Numbered from the stretch's first letter, positions 5,183-52,473 are shown. The stretch is DNA of 64,000 bases from Ignavibacteria bacterium (GCA_947491315.1 CANLII010000005.1:34552-98551); one strand, 5' to 3'. A program made the numbers and translations. The notes: a model not told the origin generated them from the letters alone.

Positions 5183-6112
5183 TCAACCGCGGGGATGATA
5201 GGTCTTATGCACCTGTCGAATGAATTCGCGGTCAATATGCGTATAAATTTGCGTGGAGCTTATATCTGAATGACCCAACATTTCTTGCAATGCACGAAGA
5301 TCCGCGCCTCCCTCAAGCAAATGTGTTGCAAAAGAATGCCTGAATGTATGTGGATGCACATGCTTTTTTATACCTGCATCCATCGTGGCTTTGCTGACGA
5401 TATTCCAAACGCTCATTCTTGAGATTCCCGTTCCTCTTTGATTCAAGAAGAGAATGTCATTTGTCGAAACTCTGGATTTCATGAAATGGGGTCTGACTTC
5501 CACTTGATATGTTGCAACCCATTCCAATGCAGAACTTCCAATTGGTACAATTCGTTCTTTGGAACCCTTTCCAAACACACGAATCACTTCTTGCTCCAAA
5601 AGCATGTCTCTTTGTTTGATTCCGCATAATTCAGAAACACGAAGACCACATGCATATAGCAATTCAAGCATGGCTTTATCTCGAATACCTGCTTTTGTTG
5701 TGATGTCGGGTTGCTCCAAAATGGCAAGCATTTCATCAATGGAAAGTGTATCCGGTAAACTTCTTCGCGACTTGGGTAATTCAGCTTTTTCAGTGATATC
5801 AGTGTCGATGACTTTATTAGAAAACAAAAAAGAGAAAAATCCGCGAAGTGAAGACAATGTTCTTGTGCGAGATGATAATGCCAAGCCCAATTCTTCGAGC
5901 ATCAATAGGAAAGAATGAATATGTTGAATTTCAATAAATGCATATTTCTCCATTCCCTGATGAACAATAAAGGTGCTAAATCTCTCGATGTCAAACATAT
6001 ATGCCGAAACAGTATTCTCGCTCACCCCTTTTTCCAGAACGAGAAATCTCTTATATGATTGCATCTCTCTCTTCAGTGAAAGAGGAAGCTGTGCGGATGA
6101 TTCATCCATCAA
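5183..6112 (-). CDS. Tyrosine site-specific recombinase, XerC/XerD family
   Basis: Catalytic C-terminus HPHTFRHSFATHLLEGGADLRALQEMLGHSDISSTQIYTH with conserved R…HxxR…Y. N-terminal SAM-like core-binding domain. Length 309 aa. Confidence 0.8.
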   Translation of the reverse strand: MMDESSAQLPLSLKREMQSYKRFLVLEKGVSENTVSAYMFDIERFSTFIVHQGMEKYAFIEIQHIHSFLLMLEELGLALSSRTRTLSSLRGFFSFLFSNKVIDTDITEKAELPKSRRSLPDTLSIDEMLAILEQPDITTKAGIRDKAMLELLYACGLRVSELCGIKQRDMLLEQEVIRVFGKGSKERIVPIGSSALEWVATYQVEVRPHFMKSRVSTNDILFLNQRGTGISRMSVWNIVSKATMDAGIKKHVHPHTFRHSFATHLLEGGADLRALQEMLGHSDISSTQIYTHIDREFIRQVHKTYHPRG

Positions 6113-42280: not shown

Positions 42281-43642
<1,362 letters not shown>

Positions 43643-43675
43643 TTGAATGCAATGATTCACCACATTTGAAGCGGA

Positions 43676-45082
43676 TTGGATATGAGTATTGTCTTTGGAA
43701 CTGATGGATGGCGCGGAATTATCGCGCGTGATTTCACCTATGACAATCTTGCGTTAGTTGCCACGGCAACAGCCATTTATATAAAGCGAGTCGGCGATAA
43801 AAACCCATCTGCCGTGATTGGTTATGATACAAGATTCATGTCAAAAGAATTTGCGGAGGAAACAGCTCGAGTCTTCGCCGCTCATGGAATCACTGTACAT
43901 ATCACACAAGATATTTCTTCCACTCCTCAAGTATCTTTTCATACAAAACAAAAAGGTTCTGTTCTCGGTATTGTGATCACGGCAAGTCATAATCCACCGA
44001 TTTATAGTGGATATAAAGTGAAAGGTAGATTCGGTGGTCCTGCTTATCCGGAAGAAATTGCGGAGATTGAAAAGGAATTGGAAAAGTTGGGAAATAAAAT
44101 CCCTAAAGATCCTGCCAAATCACTTGATGAATATATTTTGGAAAGAATGATCAGACCTTTTGATGCACAAGAATCATATCTACGGTATATCAGAAAGAAA
44201 ATCGACTTGGAATTGATCAATGATTCAGGCTATACTGTTCTTCTCGATGCAATGTATGGTGCAGGACAGAATATTCTTCCAAAGGTCTTGAATAATGTCA
44301 CTGAATTACATGCAGAAGTCAATCCTACATTCGGTGAAGTAAAACATCCCGAGCCTATTCCGCATAATCTTCATGAATTCTTAGATATCATGAAAACGGG
44401 GAAATATGATATTGGCATTGCTACAGATGGAGATGCTGACAGACTTGGTGCGGCCGATAATGAAGGAAATTTTGTGGATTCACAAAAGATGTTCATTCTC
44501 CTGCTAAAGTATATGTGGGAAGTAAAGAAAAAGCGCGGAGCAGTTGTTAAGACTGTTTCTGTAACCTCCATGATTGAAAAGTATTGCGCAAAGCATTCAA
44601 TTCCTATACATGAAACCCCTGTTGGTTTTAAATATGTTGCCAAACTCATGAATGAGGAGAAAATCATAGTTGGTGGGGAAGAATCTGGCGGAATTGGCAC
44701 GATACTTCACATTCCTGAACGAGATGGTATCTTCAATGCTCTTCTCTTGATTGAAATGATGGCGACTCGCAAAAAGACCTTGCGTGAACTATGCGATGAA
44801 TTGGATGAAGAGTTTGGTCCTCATAAATATATGCGCAAAGATGTGCGTGTAACGCCCCAACAGAAGAAAGCAATTTTGGCAGTCTGTGCCAAAGGTCCCG
44901 CAAAAATTGGAAGATTCCCGGTCATTGGATCTAATACAAAAGATGGCTATAAATTTTTCATTGAAAATGGCTGGCTTTTGATTCGGGCATCAGGTACTGA
45001 ACCTCTCATTAGATTTTATGCTGAAGCTGAATCCATGGGGAAAGTAAATGAATTATTGGAAGAAGGCATTAAATTAAGCTGA
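43676..45082 (+). CDS. Alpha-D-phosphohexomutase family enzyme (phosphoglucomutase / phosphomannomutase-like)
   Basis: …FGTDGWRG…, phosphoserine loop TASHNPP, and metal-binding loop DGDADR. Confidence 0.75.
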   Translation: MDMSIVFGTDGWRGIIARDFTYDNLALVATATAIYIKRVGDKNPSAVIGYDTRFMSKEFAEETARVFAAHGITVHITQDISSTPQVSFHTKQKGSVLGIVITASHNPPIYSGYKVKGRFGGPAYPEEIAEIEKELEKLGNKIPKDPAKSLDEYILERMIRPFDAQESYLRYIRKKIDLELINDSGYTVLLDAMYGAGQNILPKVLNNVTELHAEVNPTFGEVKHPEPIPHNLHEFLDIMKTGKYDIGIATDGDADRLGAADNEGNFVDSQKMFILLLKYMWEVKKKRGAVVKTVSVTSMIEKYCAKHSIPIHETPVGFKYVAKLMNEEKIIVGGEESGGIGTILHIPERDGIFNALLLIEMMATRKKTLRELCDELDEEFGPHKYMRKDVRVTPQQKKAILAVCAKGPAKIGRFPVIGSNTKDGYKFFIENGWLLIRASGTEPLIRFYAEAESMGKVNELLEEGIKLS

Positions 45083-45101
45083 AGTAGTAGGATATTCCAA
45101 T

Positions 45102-45827
45102 ATGAAAAAACAGAAAACCGATCTTGAACGATATCTTGTGCAACAACAAGGAATCTTGGGGTCGGTTTTGTTTATTGATGCACAAAATGTGAATCAAAAT
45201 CAGACACCCTCAATAGATATAAAAAAACAGGTTGATATGAGTGTTAATCCCGCATGGCAATCAACAGATTCTCTTCCGATTTTGCATGATCATATTCATA
45301 CATGTATGGAATGTCGCTTGGGAGATACTCGAAATTCATTTGTTTTCGGTTCAGGAAATCCCAATGCCGATATATTGATCATCGGTGAAGCACCGGGTGC
45401 TGATGAAGATGCGCAAGGACTTCCATTTGTTGGTGCGGCCGGAAAACTCCTCACGAAGATTCTTGAAGCAATTGATCTATCAAGAGATGAAGTGTATATT
45501 GCCAATATCATCAAATGTCGTCCACCCGAAAACAGAAGACCCGAGAAAGATGAAATCGCGCAATGCGAACCCTATTTACAAAAGCAAATTGAACTCATAA
45601 AACCCGCATTCATTTTGGCACTAGGACTCACAGCCGTCAATACTCTTTTCAAGAAGACTCATCAAATGCAAGATATCAGAGGAAAAGTGATGAATTATCA
45701 CGGCGTATCTCTTCTTGCCACCTATCATCCTGCCGCTTTGCTTCGCAATCCCAATTGGAAAAAACCCGCCTGGGAAGATGTGCAATTATTGCGCTCAATG
45801 TATGATGAATGGAAGAAAGATCAGTGA
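45102..45827 (+). CDS. Uracil-DNA glycosylase, family 4 (Fe-S-containing type)
   Basis: …GEAPGADEDAQGLPFVGAAG… is family-4 motif A. Cys ligands (CMEC…, …IIKCRPP…, …CEPYL…). The last 59 codons are duplicated about 2.3 kb downstream (see the repeat features). Confidence 0.8.
   Translation: MKKQKTDLERYLVQQQGILGSVLFIDAQNVNQNQTPSIDIKKQVDMSVNPAWQSTDSLPILHDHIHTCMECRLGDTRNSFVFGSGNPNADILIIGEAPGADEDAQGLPFVGAAGKLLTKILEAIDLSRDEVYIANIIKCRPPENRRPEKDEIAQCEPYLQKQIELIKPAFILALGLTAVNTLFKKTHQMQDIRGKVMNYHGVSLLATYHPAALLRNPNWKKPAWEDVQLLRSMYDEWKKDQ
45639..45815. repeat. Left copy of a ~177 bp direct repeat (3' end of the UDG gene)
   Basis: Matches 48105..48281 with 4 mismatches, all within a 15 bp block (left positions 45657..45671). 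The 144 bp interval 45672..45815 (= 48138..48281) is identical (aligned by eye). Similarity continues upstream of the repeat with decaying identity. Confidence 0.8.
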
Positions 45828-45958
45828 AATCACAATGTTGAACACAAATCAAAAAGCCGATAAAGTGAATCAATCCAGTACATGAAATTTGAAAATATAG
45901 ATAGGTTTTCATTAGACAACATGTATCATCAATCAATTGCAATTATTGATATCATATC

Positions 45959-48019
45959 ATGAATGATCTTATTCTTGAAGCAGAAGTTACTTTTACAAAG
46001 TACATTAGAACATATCAGTATCAGGTAGCAGAAGAGTTTATAATTTCTTTTGTCCAATCAGTTGACTGGAAAGATTATGAGGTAAATGTATTCTGTACAT
46101 TTTTGCTCTATCAATATGAAGCATGTTATAAGCAGTCATATTATAGCAAATCATCTCATGTTGCAGAAAAATTAGAACATTTGTTGCAAGAGAATGAACA
46201 ATCGATTTCAGAAGTGAATATTGGAAAAATTCACTTGGCGATTGCACAAACTCAAATGATTTCAATGAATGTTGAAGGTGCTGAACTATCAGTCAATAAA
46301 GCACTTGAAAAGTTTAAGAATGAGTCTGATTTGGTCTACAGAGCAAGTGTGCTCTATACAAAGGGTTCTGTATATAAGATTAAAGGGGAATATCTACAAG
46401 CTCTTTCGGTATATTCAGATGCATTACATGAGTTGAATGGAAGTACTGAGTTTACATTGATGGCTAATGGACATGTTTTCATCGGCATGTTGAATTTTGA
46501 TCAGTCTCTTTTTGATAAAGCCTTCTCAATGTATGTAAAAGCACTTTCATTGTATGAAAAGGAGGGTAATCTCTATGGTAAGTCTGCCGTACTCATAAAT
46601 CTTGGGAATATCTATAGAAGATTATCAGATAATCAAAAGGCATTGGAGTATTATCAACAAAGTTTAGAGCTCAATCAGCAGTTGGATCGAAAAAGTGGAA
46701 TTGCTAATGTCTATGCAAGTATGGGAAATATATATTTTCATTTGGATGACTTTGAAAAAGCAGCACTCTATTACCGAAATTCCATTGAAATGTATGAAGT
46801 GCTTGGAAATAAATCAGCCCTTTACTCAATCTATAATAATGTGGGCTCGACATATTTGATGAATAAACAATATGATGAAGCCATAGAGTATTATAATAAG
46901 GCTTTTGAGCGCTATAGAAATACGGGTAATTATACTGAAGAATTATCCTATTATGTTAACCTGGGGCAATTGTATCTCAAACAAGAGAATTATTCTTTAG
47001 CCAAGGAGTATAATGAAAGAGGATTGCAGCTCAGTAAGGAAAAGGGTGATCAGGAAAGATTGCATGAATTCCTAAGCTCGCTTGGTATTATCTACTTTCA
47101 TGAATCAGTGTCGGATGCTGAAACAGCAACTTCTATTTCATTTGTGGAACAAGCATATGCATATACTGTGCAAGCCAAAATGAAATTTGAGCAAGCTACG
47201 CATGCTAACAGATTATCTGATATGTATTCAAAGATGAAAGATTGGGAATCCGCATTTACTTATCATAAAATATTTCATGATCTTGAAGCGGAGATTCATA
47301 GTTCAGATATCCGAAAGCATGCAGAAATCATGGAGCATAATCGGAAAATATTAGAGGCTGAACAACATCAACAAAGTGAATTATCAGCATTGCGAGAACA
47401 TTCCAGATTGTTGCATGACATTCTACCTTCAACTATTGCAGAGAGAATAATTTCAGGAGAAAAGACAATTGCTGAAGAAACTGCATCTGTTAGTATTTTC
47501 TTTTCTGACATCGTTGGATTTACTTCAATAGCTGAATCAATTTCACCATCTGCATTGGTTCAAAATCTCAATAAATTATTTTCTATAATTGATAATCTAG
47601 CAGATAAGCACGGTATTGAGAAGATAAAGACAATAGGTGACTCATATATGGCCGTTTGTGGTATACCTGAATATAAGCATGATCACGCGATTCGCATGGC
47701 AGAGTTTGCCAAAGAAGTCATGGGATTATCAGAATCTTTCAATTTTGAAGATAGAGCCATTGAGTTAAGAATAGGTATCCACTCAGGACCCGCAGTTGCA
47801 GGAGTGATTGGACTAAATAGATATGCGTACGATTTATGGGGTGATTCTGTAAATATTGCGAGCAGAATGGAGAGTACCGGAATGCCTGGAAAAATTCAAG
47901 TAAGTGAATCTTTCGTATTAGAATTATCAAATCAATCTAAGGGTAGATTTATTACTTCTTATAGAGGGGAAACAGAAATGAAGGGCAAAGGAACCCTGAA
48001 GACCTATACTCTTTTGTAA
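45959..48019 (+). CDS. TPR-repeat sensor fused to class III adenylate cyclase catalytic domain
   Basis: N-terminal region of about 430 aa with tandem TPR-like repeats (…GNIYRRLSDNQKALEYYQQSLEL…). C-terminal CHD with metal-binding Asp residues (FSDIVGFT, IGDSYM) and adenine-specifying Lys/Asp (…EKIKTIGDSYMAV…, …YDLWGDSVNIASRMES…). Confidence 0.8.
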   Translation: MNDLILEAEVTFTKYIRTYQYQVAEEFIISFVQSVDWKDYEVNVFCTFLLYQYEACYKQSYYSKSSHVAEKLEHLLQENEQSISEVNIGKIHLAIAQTQMISMNVEGAELSVNKALEKFKNESDLVYRASVLYTKGSVYKIKGEYLQALSVYSDALHELNGSTEFTLMANGHVFIGMLNFDQSLFDKAFSMYVKALSLYEKEGNLYGKSAVLINLGNIYRRLSDNQKALEYYQQSLELNQQLDRKSGIANVYASMGNIYFHLDDFEKAALYYRNSIEMYEVLGNKSALYSIYNNVGSTYLMNKQYDEAIEYYNKAFERYRNTGNYTEELSYYVNLGQLYLKQENYSLAKEYNERGLQLSKEKGDQERLHEFLSSLGIIYFHESVSDAETATSISFVEQAYAYTVQAKMKFEQATHANRLSDMYSKMKDWESAFTYHKIFHDLEAEIHSSDIRKHAEIMEHNRKILEAEQHQQSELSALREHSRLLHDILPSTIAERIISGEKTIAEETASVSIFFSDIVGFTSIAESISPSALVQNLNKLFSIIDNLADKHGIEKIKTIGDSYMAVCGIPEYKHDHAIRMAEFAKEVMGLSESFNFEDRAIELRIGIHSGPAVAGVIGLNRYAYDLWGDSVNIASRMESTGMPGKIQVSESFVLELSNQSKGRFITSYRGETEMKGKGTLKTYTLL

Positions 48020-48084
48020 GAGGTCATGTGTAATCTCTCTCGATTTTAGTAACTCTTAAAAATAACGAAAGTGAGTAAATGACC

Positions 48085-48305
48085 AACTTAGACTCGTGGC
48101 CATGAATACTCTTTTCAAGAAGAATTATCTAATGTAAGATATCAGAGGAAAAGTGATGAATTATCACGGCGTATCTCTTCTTGCCACCTATCATCCTGCC
48201 GCTTTGCTTCGCAATCCCAATTGGAAAAAACCCGCCTGGGAAGATGTGCAATTATTGCGCTCAATGTATGATGAATGGAAGATTAGGACAATCAAGAAAT
48301 TATGA
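48085..48305 (+). pseudogene. Decayed 3' fragment of a uracil-DNA glycosylase gene (UDG paralog or alternate allele remnant)
   Basis: Reading in the UDG frame gives …RLVAMNTLFKKNYLM*DIRGKVMNYHG…DEWKIRTIKKL*. It is homologous to UDG codons about 168 to 241 but carries an in-frame TAA where UDG has CAA. There is no N-terminal region and no start context. Confidence 0.6.
48105..48281. repeat. Right copy of the ~177 bp direct repeat
   Basis: Near-identical to 45639..45815. The sequence immediately 3' differs between copies (AAAGATCAGTGA at the left, ATTAGGACAATCAAGAAATTATGA at the right). Confidence 0.8.
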
Positions 48306-48362
48306 GAGCATTTATTAATCAATATGCAGATAGGTTTGGGATAATAATGATTGTTGATTGAA

Positions 48363-49277
48363 TCATTCCAGTAGTTGCTTTCGGTCCAACTTTGTATCGT
48401 AGAGATTATGAATCAAGAGTATGGAAAGCCCAAATAAGACTGATCCAATAATGAGGACATTACTCAGAATCCCGTCTATTGAAAATGAAAGCTTCAGTAG
48501 AATCGTAGAAATAACAAATCCAGAGTTTCGGACAATGACATGAAATTTGTCAGTAAAGTACAAAGACATCAAAAGCAATAGTGCATCTACTATGATCAGA
48601 GCGGTAAAAAACTCATCAAAGAAAATATTATTCAGCTCCACAAATACTTCCATTTTTTGTGAATACGCATTCATTGCATTCATAGTCCAATTGAAAAATG
48701 CAACAAAAGCCAGTATAAACATAGTTGGTACGAGAATCTTGGCTAAAATCAACTTCAGCCGAATAAACGAATGTAAATTAGGATCAAGCATAGTATCTGG
48801 TTTACTGTGACTGGATTTTGAGTATGCATGGGAATTTTTGTAGAAAAGGAAGATCAGAAGCAATAATATGAGTGTTGTGACAATGTCATAAGTGAACTGT
48901 AAATCACCCTTTGAATGAAACCAATCACTCATAAAATCAAGAGAGGCTATGTCCTTGAAAATGCGTCGAATGACGATTAAAGTTATGATTTCAAATTGTT
49001 TGCCAATATAGATGGTGATTGAATGAGGGATATAGAAGATCAGTAAATACACTTCATAGACCAATATGAAAGAGAAGGGTGTATAAATGGCCGCGATAGG
49101 ATTCAATAAAAAGGATGACTTAACACTTATAAAGCCAAAAAATGCGAAAATAATGAGAGCTAAATGAATAAAAAAGCAGCAAATAGCGATAGTGAGCGAA
49201 AGCTTTTCAATCTTTACTCTCGTTTCATATGAGAGCAACATAGTTGAGTAATTCAATATACTCGCGAGAGGTTTCAT
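48363..49277 (-). CDS. Polytopic membrane protein of unknown function
   Basis: 304 aa with about 8 hydrophobic helices. Very AT-rich. No recognisable motif. Convergent with the adenylate cyclase gene. Confidence 0.4.
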   Translation of the reverse strand: MKPLASILNYSTMLLSYETRVKIEKLSLTIAICCFFIHLALIIFAFFGFISVKSSFLLNPIAAIYTPFSFILVYEVYLLIFYIPHSITIYIGKQFEIITLIVIRRIFKDIASLDFMSDWFHSKGDLQFTYDIVTTLILLLLIFLFYKNSHAYSKSSHSKPDTMLDPNLHSFIRLKLILAKILVPTMFILAFVAFFNWTMNAMNAYSQKMEVFVELNNIFFDEFFTALIIVDALLLLMSLYFTDKFHVIVRNSGFVISTILLKLSFSIDGILSNVLIIGSVLFGLSILLIHNLYDTKLDRKQLLE

Positions 49278-49349
49278 GATGTTCTCATATTAGTGTTGTA
49301 AATCAGAACGGGAAAGTTGTACAAAACATACTAATAAATAACAAACAAC

Positions 49350-49388
49350 AAAAAAAAACCCAAAAGGATAAGATACCTTTTGGGTTTT
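49350..49388 (-). terminator. Rho-independent terminator downstream of tRNA-Leu (minus strand)
   Basis: Stem CCCAAAAGG / CCTTTTGGG with a 9 nt loop. On the minus strand it is followed by a T-run (the plus-strand A9 at 49350..49358). Confidence 0.55.
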
Positions 49389-49396
49389 ATAATGCG

Positions 49397-49480
49397 TGCA
49401 GGAGGTGGGACTCGAACCCACACGGATTTATAGTCCACTGGATTTTGAGTCCAGCGCGTCTGCCATTTCGCCACTCCTGC
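49397..49480 (-). tRNA. tRNA-Leu (anticodon CAA)
   Basis: Folded by hand on the minus strand: acceptor GCAGGAG/CTCCTGC plus discriminator A; 3 bp D-stem; anticodon stem CTGGA/TCCAG with loop CTCAAAA (anticodon CAA); long variable arm of 17 nt (type II tRNA); T-arm GTGGG-TTCGAGT-CCCAC. CCA is not encoded. Confidence 0.85.
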
Positions 49481-49536
49481 GAGTGGGAAGTCAAAAATAA
49501 GAAATTTGCTCATATTCCCAAGCATGAAGATTATAC

Positions 49537-52473
49537 TTATCTATTGATTAGTATTGGATAATGACCAAGTATGCTTCCATTGCTTAATACCATGAGGGAA
49601 TATGCGCCAGAGTGAAGATTCCTCACATCCAGAAATAGGTAAAATTCTCTTTGTTCGGCAGAGTAAGACCTTATATCGATTTCATTACCCATGATATCAA
49701 ACAATCTCCATTCCAATTCTTTTGCTTCTGGAATTGTGATGGTGATAAATTCTTTGGCCGGAAGAGGAAAAACGGATGTACCGACAGGACGTTCTTCGGA
49801 AATATCAGTGCTTCGTCCAATGCTGATATCATCGATCCACCAACCATCTGCTTGGAAGGATGCTCCTGAGAAGAATCGCAATCGGAATAATGTGGTGTCT
49901 GATTGAGGCGTGAATAGAATTTGTTCAGGTTTCCAATCATCAGCATTGGTGATGCTGTCTTGCCATGGAGCGAACATTGTGGAATTGTATCTGCCAATGA
50001 CCGACCAACTATCTCCCCAATTCTGTGAAAGTTCAACCACAGCGGAATCCGTTGGATCCACAAGTGCGGCATGCATGAATCGCATGGCATGCTCTGTTTG
50101 GGGTAGCGTTTTCACTGGCATCAGGATAAAGGTGTCTCTCGCATTTCTCACATATTGTCCGGTGGGTGATTCAGTCAATGCATTTGCGCCACTGAAAGCA
50201 AAAACAGAACTCGTGGAAAATCTGCCAGAAGTATAATATGCGCGAAGTGGATCTGCATCGAAGTGTTCGGAATAAGATGATTCAATCTTGCCACCAAAGA
50301 CCAAACGTCTTGGCGTTCTTGCACTTTCATATTTGGACTGGTCGGTAAGACTCAATGAATATTCATACCAGCCTTCAATTGGCAAGGTATCATTGAATGC
50401 TTTGATCGAACCGGTATCCGTAATTGTAATTGGGTATTCTCTGATCTTGCTTCCATCTCTGAATACTGTTAATGTATTCGGATTGATGAATGGAGTGATG
50501 GAATCTGCTCTGAAGCTCGGAATGCGGATTGACAATGATACAATATTCAAATCACCGATTGTTTTTGCAGAGATGAGATTCGGCATTTGAGGAAGTTTGG
50601 CGCCTCCTGCCGTTGCCTTTACCTCGCGGATTGCACTTGTATCAATGCCAGCAACTACGCGAATGCCATAGGTATATGTTTTGAATGCGGTTACAGTGAC
50701 ATCATTAAATGTTTCCAAATCACCTGCCACTTCAGTAAGAAATGCATTGTTTCTATAGAGCACATACTTGATCGGTGCATCTAATGGCTGATCAAATACT
50801 CTTGCTTTTGGGGCTTTCCAGAATAATCGAATAGAAGTTGTATCAGTGGAAGAAGGTCTTGCAGTGAATGGATATGCCGGTTGAGGAATGCGCGTATTCA
50901 CGATTGCTGTATATGCATCATTATCAATTTTGGTCGTTCCTGCATTACGCATGTCTACCCATGATGGATAAATGATGCCATCATACATTGCGCAACCGCT
51001 ATAATCACCGGCAAAGACATTATTCCGAAAAGGATTATTTCGCAAATCGCTCTGTGCCTCTGAAGCCCTGCGATCCATCCATGTATCACCACCGTCTCTT
51101 GAATAACTCACATAACAATTCGTGATGATATTATTCGGATCATCTCGAGAATCAAGATACATGATGCCCAAATCTCCATTCGTGGGATCAATTGCAATCC
51201 AATGCCAAAATTGATCATTGGTTTCGGTTGAATGTACCATGATTGGTTTTGACCAAGATTCGCCTTTATCAGTGGAGCGAGAAAAATAGACATTCGGAAT
51301 GCTATCGGCAGACCATGACAGATAGAGCCAGCCTCTTCGCGGACCATTCGTCAAATCGCATGTCATTGAAGGATATGCCTCAGCTCTCACTCCTCCCTTA
51401 ACCGTATGTCGCACGCCCTCATCCAATACTTTTACTTTTCCGAATGAACGATATGTTTGAATCAAACGAGGTGAAGTGAAAGTAGTACCACCATCCATGG
51501 ATTTAGCGAAACCTATGCTGGATTTTGGACCAAAATTCCATACTGTATACACTTCGCCTTCGGGACCAGTTACTGTCAATGGGAAACTCTGACCAAATGT
51601 GGTATCTTCTGAAATTCCCGGAACTCGATCGCTCACGGGAACGGGCATAGACCAAGTACTTCCTTTGTCTGTTGAATATACATTTACGATTTGAGTGGAT
51701 GAATCACGATTGATCACGCGCTTCCAAGGAATATATAGTCTGTCCACATAAGGAGAAGTCGGTGAATTATCAGCCCAGATATAATATTTGTCTTCAAAAG
51801 TTGAATCAGGAGTTTGCTCTCCCAAGTGCTGAATAACGGGAATGTGTTTTGCCCATGTCACTCCACCATCGGTTGTTCTCGCAAAGAATACACCATTTTC
51901 CGGTGATGCTTTGCTTCTGTCTCCAAATGCACCATAGACCAAATAACCCGTTCCATCGCGACTAAAAGCTACTGATGGATCATTGCTTGAAGTGGTCATT
52001 TTGGGTGGTTTTCCAAGATTAATATTCTTCCATGTTCTGCCACCATCCATCGAATAATACACCCAAGCCGATGAACTTGCGCGGTAGTCAACAGCAGATC
52101 CAATAAGATTCATTGGATTTTTGGGATTCACCGCTATCGAAGATTCATTCTGCACAGGTAATTGATCTGTTTCAGCGGTGATCATGTTTACATCATCAAA
52201 GAAACTAGGATTGGTGAGTGAATTCGTAATCATCGGAATCATTGGCGTGAGAGGAATTTCTCTGCCGATATCAGGTGTCGGATGTGCTGATTCCATATAT
52301 CTTCGAAGAGCATCTCCCGCCTTTTTTACTTCAATCAATAGATCGCTCTGTGCCTGAAGTTCAAATGGAAGTATCGTGAAACAGAAAATTGAGAATAGGA
52401 GTGTATGCAAGTATTTCATGATCATAAATGTATTGTTTAACTGATTATGTAAAACTATGTTTTTCAGACTCAT
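49537..52473 (-). CDS. BNR/Asp-box repeat (sialidase / sortilin-like beta-propeller) secreted protein with T9SS C-terminal sorting domain
   Basis: Signal peptide. At least 6 S-x-D-x-G-x-T-W Asp-box repeats (YSMDGGRTW, TTDGGVTW, STDKGSTW, KSMDGGTTF, RSTDKGESW, YSRDGGDTW). The C-terminal about 80 aa resemble a Por secretion C-terminal domain. 978 aa. Confidence 0.6.
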   Translation of the reverse strand: MSLKNIVLHNQLNNTFMIMKYLHTLLFSIFCFTILPFELQAQSDLLIEVKKAGDALRRYMESAHPTPDIGREIPLTPMIPMITNSLTNPSFFDDVNMITAETDQLPVQNESSIAVNPKNPMNLIGSAVDYRASSSAWVYYSMDGGRTWKNINLGKPPKMTTSSNDPSVAFSRDGTGYLVYGAFGDRSKASPENGVFFARTTDGGVTWAKHIPVIQHLGEQTPDSTFEDKYYIWADNSPTSPYVDRLYIPWKRVINRDSSTQIVNVYSTDKGSTWSMPVPVSDRVPGISEDTTFGQSFPLTVTGPEGEVYTVWNFGPKSSIGFAKSMDGGTTFTSPRLIQTYRSFGKVKVLDEGVRHTVKGGVRAEAYPSMTCDLTNGPRRGWLYLSWSADSIPNVYFSRSTDKGESWSKPIMVHSTETNDQFWHWIAIDPTNGDLGIMYLDSRDDPNNIITNCYVSYSRDGGDTWMDRRASEAQSDLRNNPFRNNVFAGDYSGCAMYDGIIYPSWVDMRNAGTTKIDNDAYTAIVNTRIPQPAYPFTARPSSTDTTSIRLFWKAPKARVFDQPLDAPIKYVLYRNNAFLTEVAGDLETFNDVTVTAFKTYTYGIRVVAGIDTSAIREVKATAGGAKLPQMPNLISAKTIGDLNIVSLSIRIPSFRADSITPFINPNTLTVFRDGSKIREYPITITDTGSIKAFNDTLPIEGWYEYSLSLTDQSKYESARTPRRLVFGGKIESSYSEHFDADPLRAYYTSGRFSTSSVFAFSGANALTESPTGQYVRNARDTFILMPVKTLPQTEHAMRFMHAALVDPTDSAVVELSQNWGDSWSVIGRYNSTMFAPWQDSITNADDWKPEQILFTPQSDTTLFRLRFFSGASFQADGWWIDDISIGRSTDISEERPVGTSVFPLPAKEFITITIPEAKELEWRLFDIMGNEIDIRSYSAEQREFYLFLDVRNLHSGAYSLMVLSNGSILGHYPILINR

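Follow-up and report, generated by a model that had tools for sequence, protein, structure and literature searches.

We analysed a window of 64,000 nucleotides from an Ignavibacteria bacterium, and describe here a small locus that lies between a gene for a uracil-DNA glycosylase (UDG) and a tRNA-Leu gene. The intact UDG gene (45102-45827, + strand, 241 aa) matches PF03167 (E = 1.7e-40, 138.8 bits) and TIGR00758 (204.9 bits against a curated cut-off of 125.3), which places it in family 4. Its product ends in ...EWKKDQ*, a C-terminus of the KK[DS]Q type common to all 32 relatives inspected, and its sequence was invariant in 20 of 20 population sequences. The last 11 nt of the gene and the spacer that follows (45817-45958, +) lead to a gene for a 686-aa protein (45959-48019, +) in which a TPR-repeat sensor is fused to a class III adenylate/guanylate cyclase; the profile match (PF00211, positions 3-181 of 183, E = 2.6e-60; multiple TPR families also matched) confirms a full-length domain of this class in the predicted protein. 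Seven base pairs after the cyclase stop (48020-48026, +) and a 59-bp junction filler (48027-48085), found only in this species' version of the locus, separate the cyclase gene from a second copy of the UDG 3′ end (48086-48282, +), which runs into a tail reading IRTIKKL* (48283-48305, +). On the opposite strand follow a gene for a multi-pass membrane protein of 304 aa (48363-49277, −) with no match in Pfam or NCBIfam, a spacer (49278-49395, −) in which a terminator scan placed a hairpin at 49355-49388 by the tRNA 3′ end, the tRNA-Leu(CAA) gene (49396-49480, −, ARAGORN), and a segment (49481-49796, −) that holds the 3′ end of a BNR/T9SS-sorted protein gene (49537-52473).

The direct repeat around the cyclase gene

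A repeat search of the window showed that the functional 3′ end of UDG (45620-45816) has a second copy at 48086-48282 (197 nt, 94% identity, offset 2466). Compared base by base, the two copies share a perfect core of 147 nt (45670-45816 = 48136-48282), which occurs exactly twice in the window and has a sharp right edge directly after 45816/48282. To the left of the core there are four mismatches (45658, 45660, 45664, and 45669) and then seven more within 45623-45638, beyond which similarity is gone. Mismatch density between the copies climbs leftwards (0/147, 4/31, 7/19), and the difference between core (0/147) and left part (11/50) is non-random (Fisher, P = 1e-7). The repeat reported in the preliminary description of this DNA is thus real and a few bases wider than given there (perfect core 147 nt against 144 nt), and the topology, B-O-P′ ... 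P-O-B′, is as it had been drawn. The readings in the UDG frame also hold: the right copy reads ...RLVAMNTLFKKNYLM, with an in-frame TAA at 48135-48137, and then ...MYDEWKIRTIKKL, against ...GLTAVNTLFKKTHQMQ...MYDEWKKDQ* in the left copy. The unit that is present or absent in the population (45817-48282, +; 2,466 bp) comprises the UDG tail, the cyclase gene, the filler, and one repeat copy, its register being arbitrary within the core.

Metagenome assemblies can mis-join at repeats, and the preliminary description had named an artefact of this kind, a collapsed or chimeric contig, as something that would undo its interpretation. The probability that the second copy arose in this way is negligible: the two-copy structure is found in at least 11 independently assembled scaffolds from two studies (99.5-99.96% identity), copy-specific variants lie within 50 nt of unique flanks, and a Logan contig breaks off inside both repeat copies, which is the behaviour expected of a true repeat.

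The low GC content noted earlier for the insert is borne out (cyclase 34.7% vs. window 40.7%), but it does not serve as a sign of foreign origin, since it is intrinsic to the gene. In relatives that carry the cyclase without the repeat, its GC content is 31.6-37.7%, and composition is therefore silent on a recent foreign origin. We discarded it as evidence, the cyclase and membrane genes being equally AT-rich where each is the sole resident.

Alternative contents of the locus in related lineages

Close relatives were found by a homologous-protein search and then through the contigs encoding those proteins. A UDG scan of genome and metagenome contigs listed only matches of at most 71% identity, without synteny; a common motif, EAPGADED, was abundant among these listed matches. 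In this Kapaibacteria clade, what lies between the UDG 3′ end and the 3′ side of tRNA-Leu varies, and the locus has alternative contents. In at least five lineages (L093-L095, L098/L099, L182/L183, L184, and L185/L186; UDG amino acid identity 82-94%), the order is UDG-cyclase-tRNA, the UDG 3′ end is present once, and both the repeat and the membrane gene are lacking (a-type); cyclase orthologues stand in the same position in L093, L098, L182/L183, L184, and L185. In L100 and L195-L197 the order is UDG-membrane gene-tRNA-Leu (b-type), the membrane gene directly following UDG (88% nucleotide identity to the window in L100, 85% in L195). A further arrangement (d-type) has a set of uncharacterised small ORFs between UDG and tRNA-Leu. 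The membrane gene was absent from all a-type and d-type relatives compared, and the nearest relatives (91-93% identity) are all a-type or d-type, as are most deeper ones. The a-type has its own terminator and the b-type a different one. At its right end the locus is anchored by the conserved tRNA-Leu(CAA), which is 98% identical in all lineages. A stretch of 14 nt shared exactly by the interior of tRNA-Leu and the membrane gene was set aside as an att candidate, as it leaves out the tRNA 3′ end and its chance expectation is about 0.1. Apparent insertions of 17 and 42 bp in the cyclase genes of L082/L086 proved to be N-run scaffold gaps, not biology.

The window (c-type) is a hybrid of these arrangements: a-type on the left up to 48026, then the 59-bp filler, then b-type from about 48086, inside UDG. 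The a-type collinearity of the insert begins within UDG and ends 7 bp beyond the stop codon of the cyclase gene (GAGGTCA; relatives have GATGTCA/TAGGTCA). The segment 45817-45958 was alignable only to a-type L182/L183 (91-96%); against L183 there are four mismatches in 45830-45863 and a near-identical tract from there on, with 98.8% identity over 45864-47899 vs. 92-93% in the flanks. The filler had no match in any of the relatives' loci compared, and its similarity to UDG was no better than that of shuffles. On the b-type side, the window aligns with L100 over 43538-45820 and again over 48114-52167, so that the right copy lies exactly where a b-type chromosome has the 3′ end of its UDG gene. 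In b-type relatives the UDG 3′ end runs collinear with the fragment, whose tail is similar to that of the UDG in b-type L101 (AAGAATAAGGTACAAT vs. AAGATTAGGACAAT); the terminator spacer matches that of b-type L100, not the a-type hairpin (AAAAAACCGATAC...GTATCGGTTTTTT). The left copy is the carrier of the normal UDG tail, since all relatives end in EWKK...

The right-hand part (49481-49796) of a haplotype block sets the window apart from a-type and d-type relatives: there it is 85-87% identical to L093, L182, and L096, among which identity is 94-100%. After about 49796 the background level (92-93%) returns. To L098 the window is 84% identical over 49396-49796, which is ordinary background. Judged from these alignments, the locus is a recombination hotspot, as indicated by a cyclase allele much closer to L183 than its flanks are, by the mosaic UDG sequence, and by a tRNA-BNR block shared among otherwise 85%-identical lineages.

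Decay, conversion, and probable loss at the repeat

The left part of the right copy (48086-48135) carries private substitutions (G>R, T>V, V>M, H>Y, Q>L, and Q>stop) at residues that are invariant among the UDG orthologues inspected, which points to pseudogene decay and not to a functional foreign allele. This part is nearest to near-clade UDGs (11-13 mismatches in 50), vs. 20 mismatches in 50 to the UDG of b-type L100/L195. The T/N codon at 45658 was tried as a marker of polarity and dropped, being a single site at which both readings are equally parsimonious.

Across 12 two-copy sequences the left copy was unchanged, vs. three haplotypes of the right copy, in which identity begins at 45670, 45639, or 45625. 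We thus found mosaic identity, polymorphic tract ends, and an unchanged donor copy, and an invariant left copy together with graded right haplotypes and a leftward rise in mismatches is the pattern of recurrent one-way gene conversion. The right copy is a decayed pseudogene whose 3′ part, the perfect core at 48136-48282 included, has been repeatedly overwritten by gene conversion from UDG, with three tract lengths in the population. Intrachromosomal conversion between a gene and a pseudogene fragment belongs to the concerted evolution of bacterial repeats. The locus resembles such pairs in its perfect block beside a strongly diverged block, in its polymorphic tract ends, and in the one-way direction from selected copy to pseudogene; it differs in that three tract classes segregate in one natural population.

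The same species also has a UDG that ends in ...EWKIRTIKKL, the tail found after the right copy, and is followed by the membrane gene, lacking exactly 2,466 bp. At least 24 contigs encode this UDG, in each case the exact 245-aa protein. In at least eight scaffolds (L187-L194) it precedes the membrane gene within the same flanks; these scaffolds join ...45816 to 48283..., with flanks 99.5-99.7% identical and no N runs, and all come from one assembly pipeline, in which an assembler skipping the loop would give the same join. The predicted empty site therefore exists both in these scaffolds and in other lineages (L100/L195). No SNP among 148 informative flanking sites was diagnostic between empty-site and two-copy scaffolds, and the population looks freely recombined. 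Unless the loop was skipped, the empty sites are probably secondary, repeat-mediated losses of the 2,466-bp unit.

Origin of the hybrid locus

We consider it probable that the repeat is the scar of ordinary recombination that joined two alternative versions of the locus, with no mobile element needed. The hybrid structure implies that the "cargo" is a piece of a relative's chromosome, which comes close to the last of three options in the preliminary description, recombination with a relative's allele. A stretch of chromosome from an a-type relative, starting within UDG and reaching 7 bp beyond the cyclase stop, would have been joined to a b-type chromosome by general recombination, with one exchange within UDG homology and the other join illegitimate. 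This could have occurred either by Campbell-like single-crossover integration of a circularised fragment or by homology-facilitated illegitimate recombination (HFIR), and a site-specific recombinase would not be required. The joining event would duplicate ~197 nt at the end of UDG; the copy displaced by it would turn into a pseudogene and decay, its 3′ 147-192 nt being repeatedly overwritten by conversion from the functional UDG; and the two copies would serve as substrates for RecA-type deletion, by which the cyclase is lost and UDG gains the tail KIRTIKKL. We infer both the recombination mechanism and the old age of the event. The insert is collinear with a relative's chromosome and has one homologous and one non-homologous junction; the illegitimate joint carries the 59-bp filler, which is long for HFIR joints.

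As to polarity, a b-type resident receiving an a-type fragment is slightly favoured, because the unconverted part of the fragment is near-clade-like and the tRNA-BNR block is at background distance from L098. The opposite course is possible but doubtful: an a-type lineage would have imported a b-type block (~48086-49796: UDG 3′ part, membrane gene, spacer, tRNA-Leu, and BNR 3′ end) by HFIR, with a homologous crossover near 49796 and an illegitimate joint just past the cyclase, and the empty-site forms would then necessarily be later deletions. With nearest relatives all a- or d-type and most deeper ones too, one additive import is most parsimonious, and parsimony of arrangements on an approximate tree favours an a-type resident. 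The window is also unusually divergent from its nearest relatives in 49396-49796 and returns to background thereafter, like a donor tract, and its membrane gene is closer to L100 (88%) than the flanks are (78-82%). However, the unconverted fragment does not resemble L100/L195, although an older conversion could mask this, and given the ordinary distance to L098 it is L093, L096, and L182 that look like acquirers of an L098-like block.

Integrase-mediated islands and prophages may carry the 3′ end of their target gene and so leave attL/attR footprints, and the 3′ side of tRNA genes, which this locus adjoins, is a classic island hotspot. The preliminary description had offered explanations of this kind, namely a degraded integrative element or one mobilised in trans. 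On such a site-specific reading, a small circular cassette with the cyclase and its own copy of the UDG 3′ end would have entered an attB in the UDG 3′ end by way of a tyrosine or serine recombinase encoded elsewhere, the repeats would be attL and attR, and the empty-site scaffolds would be excisants or naive sites. The likeness extends to the topology, to direct repeats of the UDG 3′ end flanking a single insert, to a restored target gene with a displaced 3′ fragment, and to an exact empty site in the same population, subject to the loop-skip caveat on its scaffolds. We nevertheless regard such an element as improbable. Nothing but the cyclase lies between the repeats, no integrase Pfam match was found within ±10 kb, and the only tyrosine recombinase, indeed the sole recombinase, in the window is a housekeeping XerD equivalog (5183-6112), 40 kb away. 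With an identical spacer on its UDG side and the same 7 bp after its stop, the cyclase neighbours UDG without a repeat in at least five related lineages, an arrangement that the preliminary description itself had said would argue against integration; in those lineages the cyclase is not bounded by repeats as an autonomous unit would be, and relatives carry the insert as native chromosomal sequence. Strains differ in where identity begins on the left, a pattern that suits conversion or homologous exchange and is unexpected for a fixed recombinase core, although later conversion could overlay one. Identity over 147-192 nt is far beyond what such a core needs and ample for RecA. It is quite improbable, too, that the repeats form a maintained on/off device, their identity kept by conversion while the cyclase cassette is popped out and regained, or that they belong to a new integrase-less UDG-3′-end cassette; if the on/off device were true, there would be heritable presence/absence switching of a cAMP-signalling sensor in the population. 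A purely local rearrangement would involve no DNA from another lineage: a genome already in possession of cyclase and membrane genes would have duplicated its UDG 3′ end in tandem. This reading would agree with an unconverted fragment closest to the window's own UDG type and with a composition that marks neither gene as foreign. It is very improbable, however, as no relative examined has both genes without the repeat, the two halves match different natural arrangements (including different terminators by the tRNA), and the b-type tail after the fragment, collinear with L100/L101, would be left unaccounted for.

The processes that make up the preferred reading, a scar of recombination between alternative alleles, are all of already known kinds, and none is new in kind. 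HFIR (de Vries and Wackernagel 2002; Prudhomme et al. 2002; Meier and Wackernagel 2003, as cited in PMC5361080) and the circularisation and single-crossover integration of linear DNA (Amarir-Bouhram et al. 2011, PMC3240628) are alike in having one junction in homology, here UDG, and the other illegitimate (here cyclase stop + 7/filler/UDG codon ~173), and in that the DNA gained is ordinary chromosome from a relative; when a circularised fragment integrates by a single crossover, the result is exactly this, the homologous segment in direct duplicate on both sides of the insert. Here the mechanism is read from sequence alone in an organism known only from metagenomes, and the 59-bp filler exceeds the microhomology joints usually described for HFIR. 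In Rhs/T6SS effector-immunity loci, which show C-terminal displacement and orphan modules (Jackson et al. 2009; Kirchberger et al. 2017, PMC5361080), an incoming allele on a conserved upstream anchor likewise pushes the resident 3′ end and the downstream gene back, giving an additive array with an orphaned 3′ remnant. Our locus is anchored on a DNA-repair gene, its cassettes hold a gene for cAMP signalling and one for a membrane protein instead of toxin/immunity pairs, and only one displacement is observed. Flexible genomic islands by tRNA genes whose contents are replaced or extended by recombination in conserved flanks, as described for Alteromonas and Methylophilaceae (e.g. PMC3698932, PMC10872708), share with it a strain- and lineage-variable interval between conserved genes, one of them a tRNA, with alternative contents at one position and alleles that are closer across lineages than the backbone. 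Set against such islands, our locus is very small (one or two genes), and the hybrid retains a duplicated anchor fragment that documents the event.

Two alternative alleles would thus have merged additively, leaving behind a duplicated gene end that mimics attL/attR exactly, which calls for caution in island and prophage predictors that read direct repeats of a gene's 3′ end as integrase-mediated insertion. One data set appears to capture both pseudogene decay and recurrent one-way conversion, with three tract lengths segregating. In this uncultured freshwater Kapaibacteria population, the locus may be a natural example of how a small variable locus by a tRNA gene diversifies without mobile-element machinery, and the probable repeat-mediated loss of a cAMP-signalling gene would at the same time rewrite the C-terminus of a DNA-repair enzyme.

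Repetition of the UDG 3′ end

The gene calls of the preliminary description were confirmed, namely a family-4 uracil-DNA glycosylase (UDG; 45102-45827, + strand; PF03167, with a TIGR00758 score exceeding the cut-off), a 686-aa TPR and class III cyclase protein (45959-48019, +; PF00211), a multi-pass, family-less membrane protein of 304 aa (48363-49277, −), and tRNA-Leu(CAA) (49396-49480, −). The direct repeat of the UDG 3′ end that it reported was also recovered: a repeat search of the window aligned the left copy (45620-45816) with the right copy (48086-48282) over 197 nt at 94% identity and an offset of 2466, and an in-register comparison of both copies gave unbroken identity for 147 nt (45670-45816 = 48136-48282). 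This core occurs exactly twice within the 64-kb window. Mismatches are found at 45658, 45660, 45664, and 45669, with seven more within 45623-45638; no relatedness extends further left, and the copies diverge sharply right of 45816/48282. In the UDG frame, the left copy reads ...GLTAVNTLFKKTHQMQDIRG...MYDEWKKDQ before its stop, and the right copy reads ...RLVAMNTLFKKNYLM, an in-frame stop, then DIRGKVMNYHG...MYDEWKIRTIKKL and a final stop.

Among this UDG and the proteins P0001-P0065 (named 'DNA polymerase' by JGI), the first ~60 residues, a linker, are hypervariable, and the C-terminal ~170 residues are nearly invariant across lineages with genomes just ~80% identical. The 304-aa membrane protein falls outside the curated families; its homologues at ~55% identity number in the thousands in Bacteroidota (Flavobacteriia, Saprospiria), and its close clusters within this clade are only three.

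An assembly artefact as the source of the repeat was ruled out: the two-copy structure is present in 11 further scaffolds of the same species, assembled independently in two studies (identity 99.5-99.96%), and a Logan contig (L092) covers 45787-48165 only, so that its termini lie within both repeat copies. N-run scaffold gaps within the cyclase in two samples (L082 at ~11483, L086 at ~12255) may be due to reduced or mixed coverage in places where cyclase-bearing and cyclase-free strains coexist.

Contents of the UDG-to-tRNA-Leu interval

By the source names of related sequences, the organism is one of the uncultured Kapaibacteria/Ignavibacteria-like bacteria. UDG homologues of 94, 90, 88, and 82% amino acid identity were each traced back to their contigs. 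The order around the locus is conserved (sigma factor, TerC, aminotransferase, thioredoxin, pterin-4a dehydratase, enolase, PGM, UDG ... BNR/T9SS protein, arginase), and despite this synteny the contents of the interval from UDG to tRNA-Leu differ between relatives. Type (a) has UDG, cyclase, a 45-nt terminator hairpin, and tRNA-Leu (L093-095, L098/099, L182/183, L184); type (b) has UDG, the convergent membrane gene, and tRNA-Leu (L100, L195-197, and probably L101); type (d) has UDG, four small family-less ORFs, and tRNA-Leu (L096/097); and type (c), with the cyclase, the membrane gene, and a second UDG fragment, is confined to the window's species. The four ORFs of type (d) (232, 154, 52, and 54 aa) hold the cyclase position (L096 9774-11473, and L097) and have no match in Pfam or NCBIfam. 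L185/186 share the UDG-cyclase arrangement of type (a) with a different downstream region: tRNA-Leu and the BNR gene are absent (L185 10438-14670, and L186), and the cyclase is followed by a MazG-like gene, an SLFN-g3-helicase/nSTAND3-like gene, and Fib_succ_major proteins, possibly a defence-like insertion.

The UDG 3′ end is single in all a-, b-, and d-type loci examined. The preliminary description had taken the repeat for the att-like footprint of an integrated element, a reading that is not supported: a-type relatives carry the cyclase at the same place without any repeat, the cyclase 'cargo' and its upstream spacer are ordinary chromosomal sequence in relatives, and no recombinase lies nearby. 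No integrase, transposase, or phage gene was found among the Pfam-annotated genes within 10 kb on either side of the locus. When the other ORFs of at least 120 aa in the window were screened, a single tyrosine recombinase was returned; this XerD equivalog (354 bits vs. a cut-off of 329.6) is encoded at 5183-6112 (−), with a PBP gene and IMPDH as its neighbors, and looks housekeeping. The low GC content of the cyclase (34.7%) is equalled in a-type lineages (31.6-37.7%), and that of the membrane gene (34.3%) in L195 (31.0%). The interiors of the membrane gene (48810-48823) and tRNA-Leu (49437-49450) share an exact direct match of 14 nt, which leaves out the 3′ end of the tRNA and is probably due to chance.

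Judged from alignments with these relatives, the window locus is an a-type left half joined to a b-type right half. Homology to a-type relatives extends from UDG, its final 11 nt included, across the spacer and through the cyclase; it ends at 48026, 7 bp past the cyclase stop (GAGGTCA vs. GATGTCA/TAGGTCA), and returns only from the tRNA onward. Against the b-type L100, the window forms two collinear blocks (43538-45820 and 48114-52167), so that everything from the right copy and its tail, through the membrane gene and the spacer, to the tRNA-proximal hairpin is placed exactly as in a b-type chromosome. The tail of the right copy (AAGATTAGGACAAT...) is similar to the UDG tail of b-type L101 (AAGAATAAGGTACAAT...). 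The UDG C terminus is EWKK.. in all 32 orthologues inspected, so the left copy holds the ordinary one. The 59 bp between the halves (48027-48085) match neither UDG nor any fetched locus. The b-type half begins within UDG, near codon 173, which accounts for the doubled UDG 3′ end.

Two routes to this hybrid were weighed. A b-type resident may have taken up an a-type fragment (the UDG 3′ part, spacer, cyclase, and 7 bp more), which would either have circularized and integrated through a single crossover within UDG homology or have entered by homology-facilitated illegitimate recombination (HFIR). Alternatively, an a-type resident may have imported a b-type block, from the UDG 3′ part to the BNR 3′ end, through HFIR and a homologous crossover near 49796. 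Parsimony of arrangement favors import of the b-type block. Uptake of the a-type fragment is favored by the unconverted part of the UDG fragment, which is nearest to near-clade UDGs (11-13 mismatches/50) and far from L100/L195 (20/50), and by the tRNA-BNR block of the window, which lies at ordinary background distance from L098; we lean slightly to this uptake. Both routes are general recombination between alternative alleles. The preliminary description had offered recombination with a relative's allele as an alternative, and the two halves, each collinear with relatives, bear this out; its B-O-P′...P-O-B′ topology is likewise correct. HFIR has precedents in Acinetobacter, Streptococcus, and Pseudomonas, as cited in PMC5361080. 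Rhs/T6SS loci provide one for displaced 3′ gene ends (PMC5361080), and E. coli provides one for circularization with a single crossover (PMC3240628).

Mosaic alleles and probable conversion of the repeat

Within the cyclase, 45864-47899 differs from L183 (of the L182/L183 lineage) at 25 positions (98.8% identity), against 5-10 differences per 100 nt in the flanks (gene identity, 92-93%). At both ends of the a-type segment (45817-45863 and 47900-48026), divergence is at background level, which indicates a putative later homologous allele exchange at 45864-47899, nested within the older a-type segment. The flanks of L093 are equally close to the window, yet its cyclase is only ~70% identical; this points to a probable recent swap of a signalling-gene allele between lineages. 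The window UDG is itself a mosaic, with an L093-like N-terminal linker and an L182/L096-like remainder. At 49396-49796 (tRNA-Leu and the 3′ end of the BNR/T9SS gene), the a-/d-type lineages L093, L096, and L182 are mutually 94-100% identical, L098 is 92-96% identical to them (vs. ~85% elsewhere), and the window shares 85-87% identity with them; it seems that a haplotype block has moved between lineages here. By these patchworks of similarity, the locus is a recombination hotspot.

The left copy is invariant in 12/12 two-copy sequences, and the right copy occurs as three haplotypes: type A (seven sequences, the window's among them) with all 11 differences, type B (L084, L085, L088) with only those left of 45639, and type C (L081, L090) with just two, at 45623-45624, and identity over 192 nt. 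These haplotypes cannot be assembler chimeras, we infer, because their new junctions need k-mers missing from the type-A genome (longest common stretch there, 19 nt). Mismatch density climbs leftward across the repeat (0/147, 4/31, 7/19; 0/147 vs. 11/50, P = 1e-7), the pattern expected if gene conversion recurs in one direction, from the selected UDG to the fragment. Conversion tracts would stop on the right where homology ends and would vary in leftward reach. Where the fragment is unconverted, its private changes (G>R, T>V, V>M, H>Y, Q>L, Q>stop) alter residues invariant in orthologues down to 67% identity, so the fragment is a decaying pseudogene. Because the unconverted part has diverged by ~22%, and present species diversity is ~0.4%, the duplication would be far older than that diversity, implying an age near the split from the 91-93% relatives. 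The four-substitution cluster that creates the fragment's TAA lies in AGAATTATCTAAT (48110-48133), whose likeness to AGAATTATCAAAT near the cyclase 3′ end (47909-47932) is probably coincidence.

The empty site

The preliminary description predicted an empty site. We looked up the exact sequence of the expected product of recombination between the copies (window UDG residues 1-236 followed by IRTIKKL), and this UDG245 was found as P0242 on at least 24 contigs. The count that gives 17 contigs for it gives 78 for UDG241, the protein of the two-copy form, which is thus the commoner. Eight scaffolds (L187-L194), from other samples of the same project, carry PGM, UDG245, the membrane gene, tRNA, and BNR; they are 99.5-99.7% identical to the window, are shorter by exactly 2,466 bp, and are free of N runs around the junction.

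The empty scaffolds may have arisen by the assembler skipping the loop. However, N-run gaps elsewhere in them suggest that read pairs were used, and we would expect a pair-aware assembler to connect UDG with the membrane gene only where pairs support it. Persistence of an ancestral allele is also possible. No flanking SNPs separating empty from two-copy scaffolds were found, so the empty sites are best read as recent, possibly recurrent deletions produced by exchange between the copies within a population that recombines freely. The locus is a fresh example of already known processes, and its main use is as a well-documented case that mimics an integration footprint.
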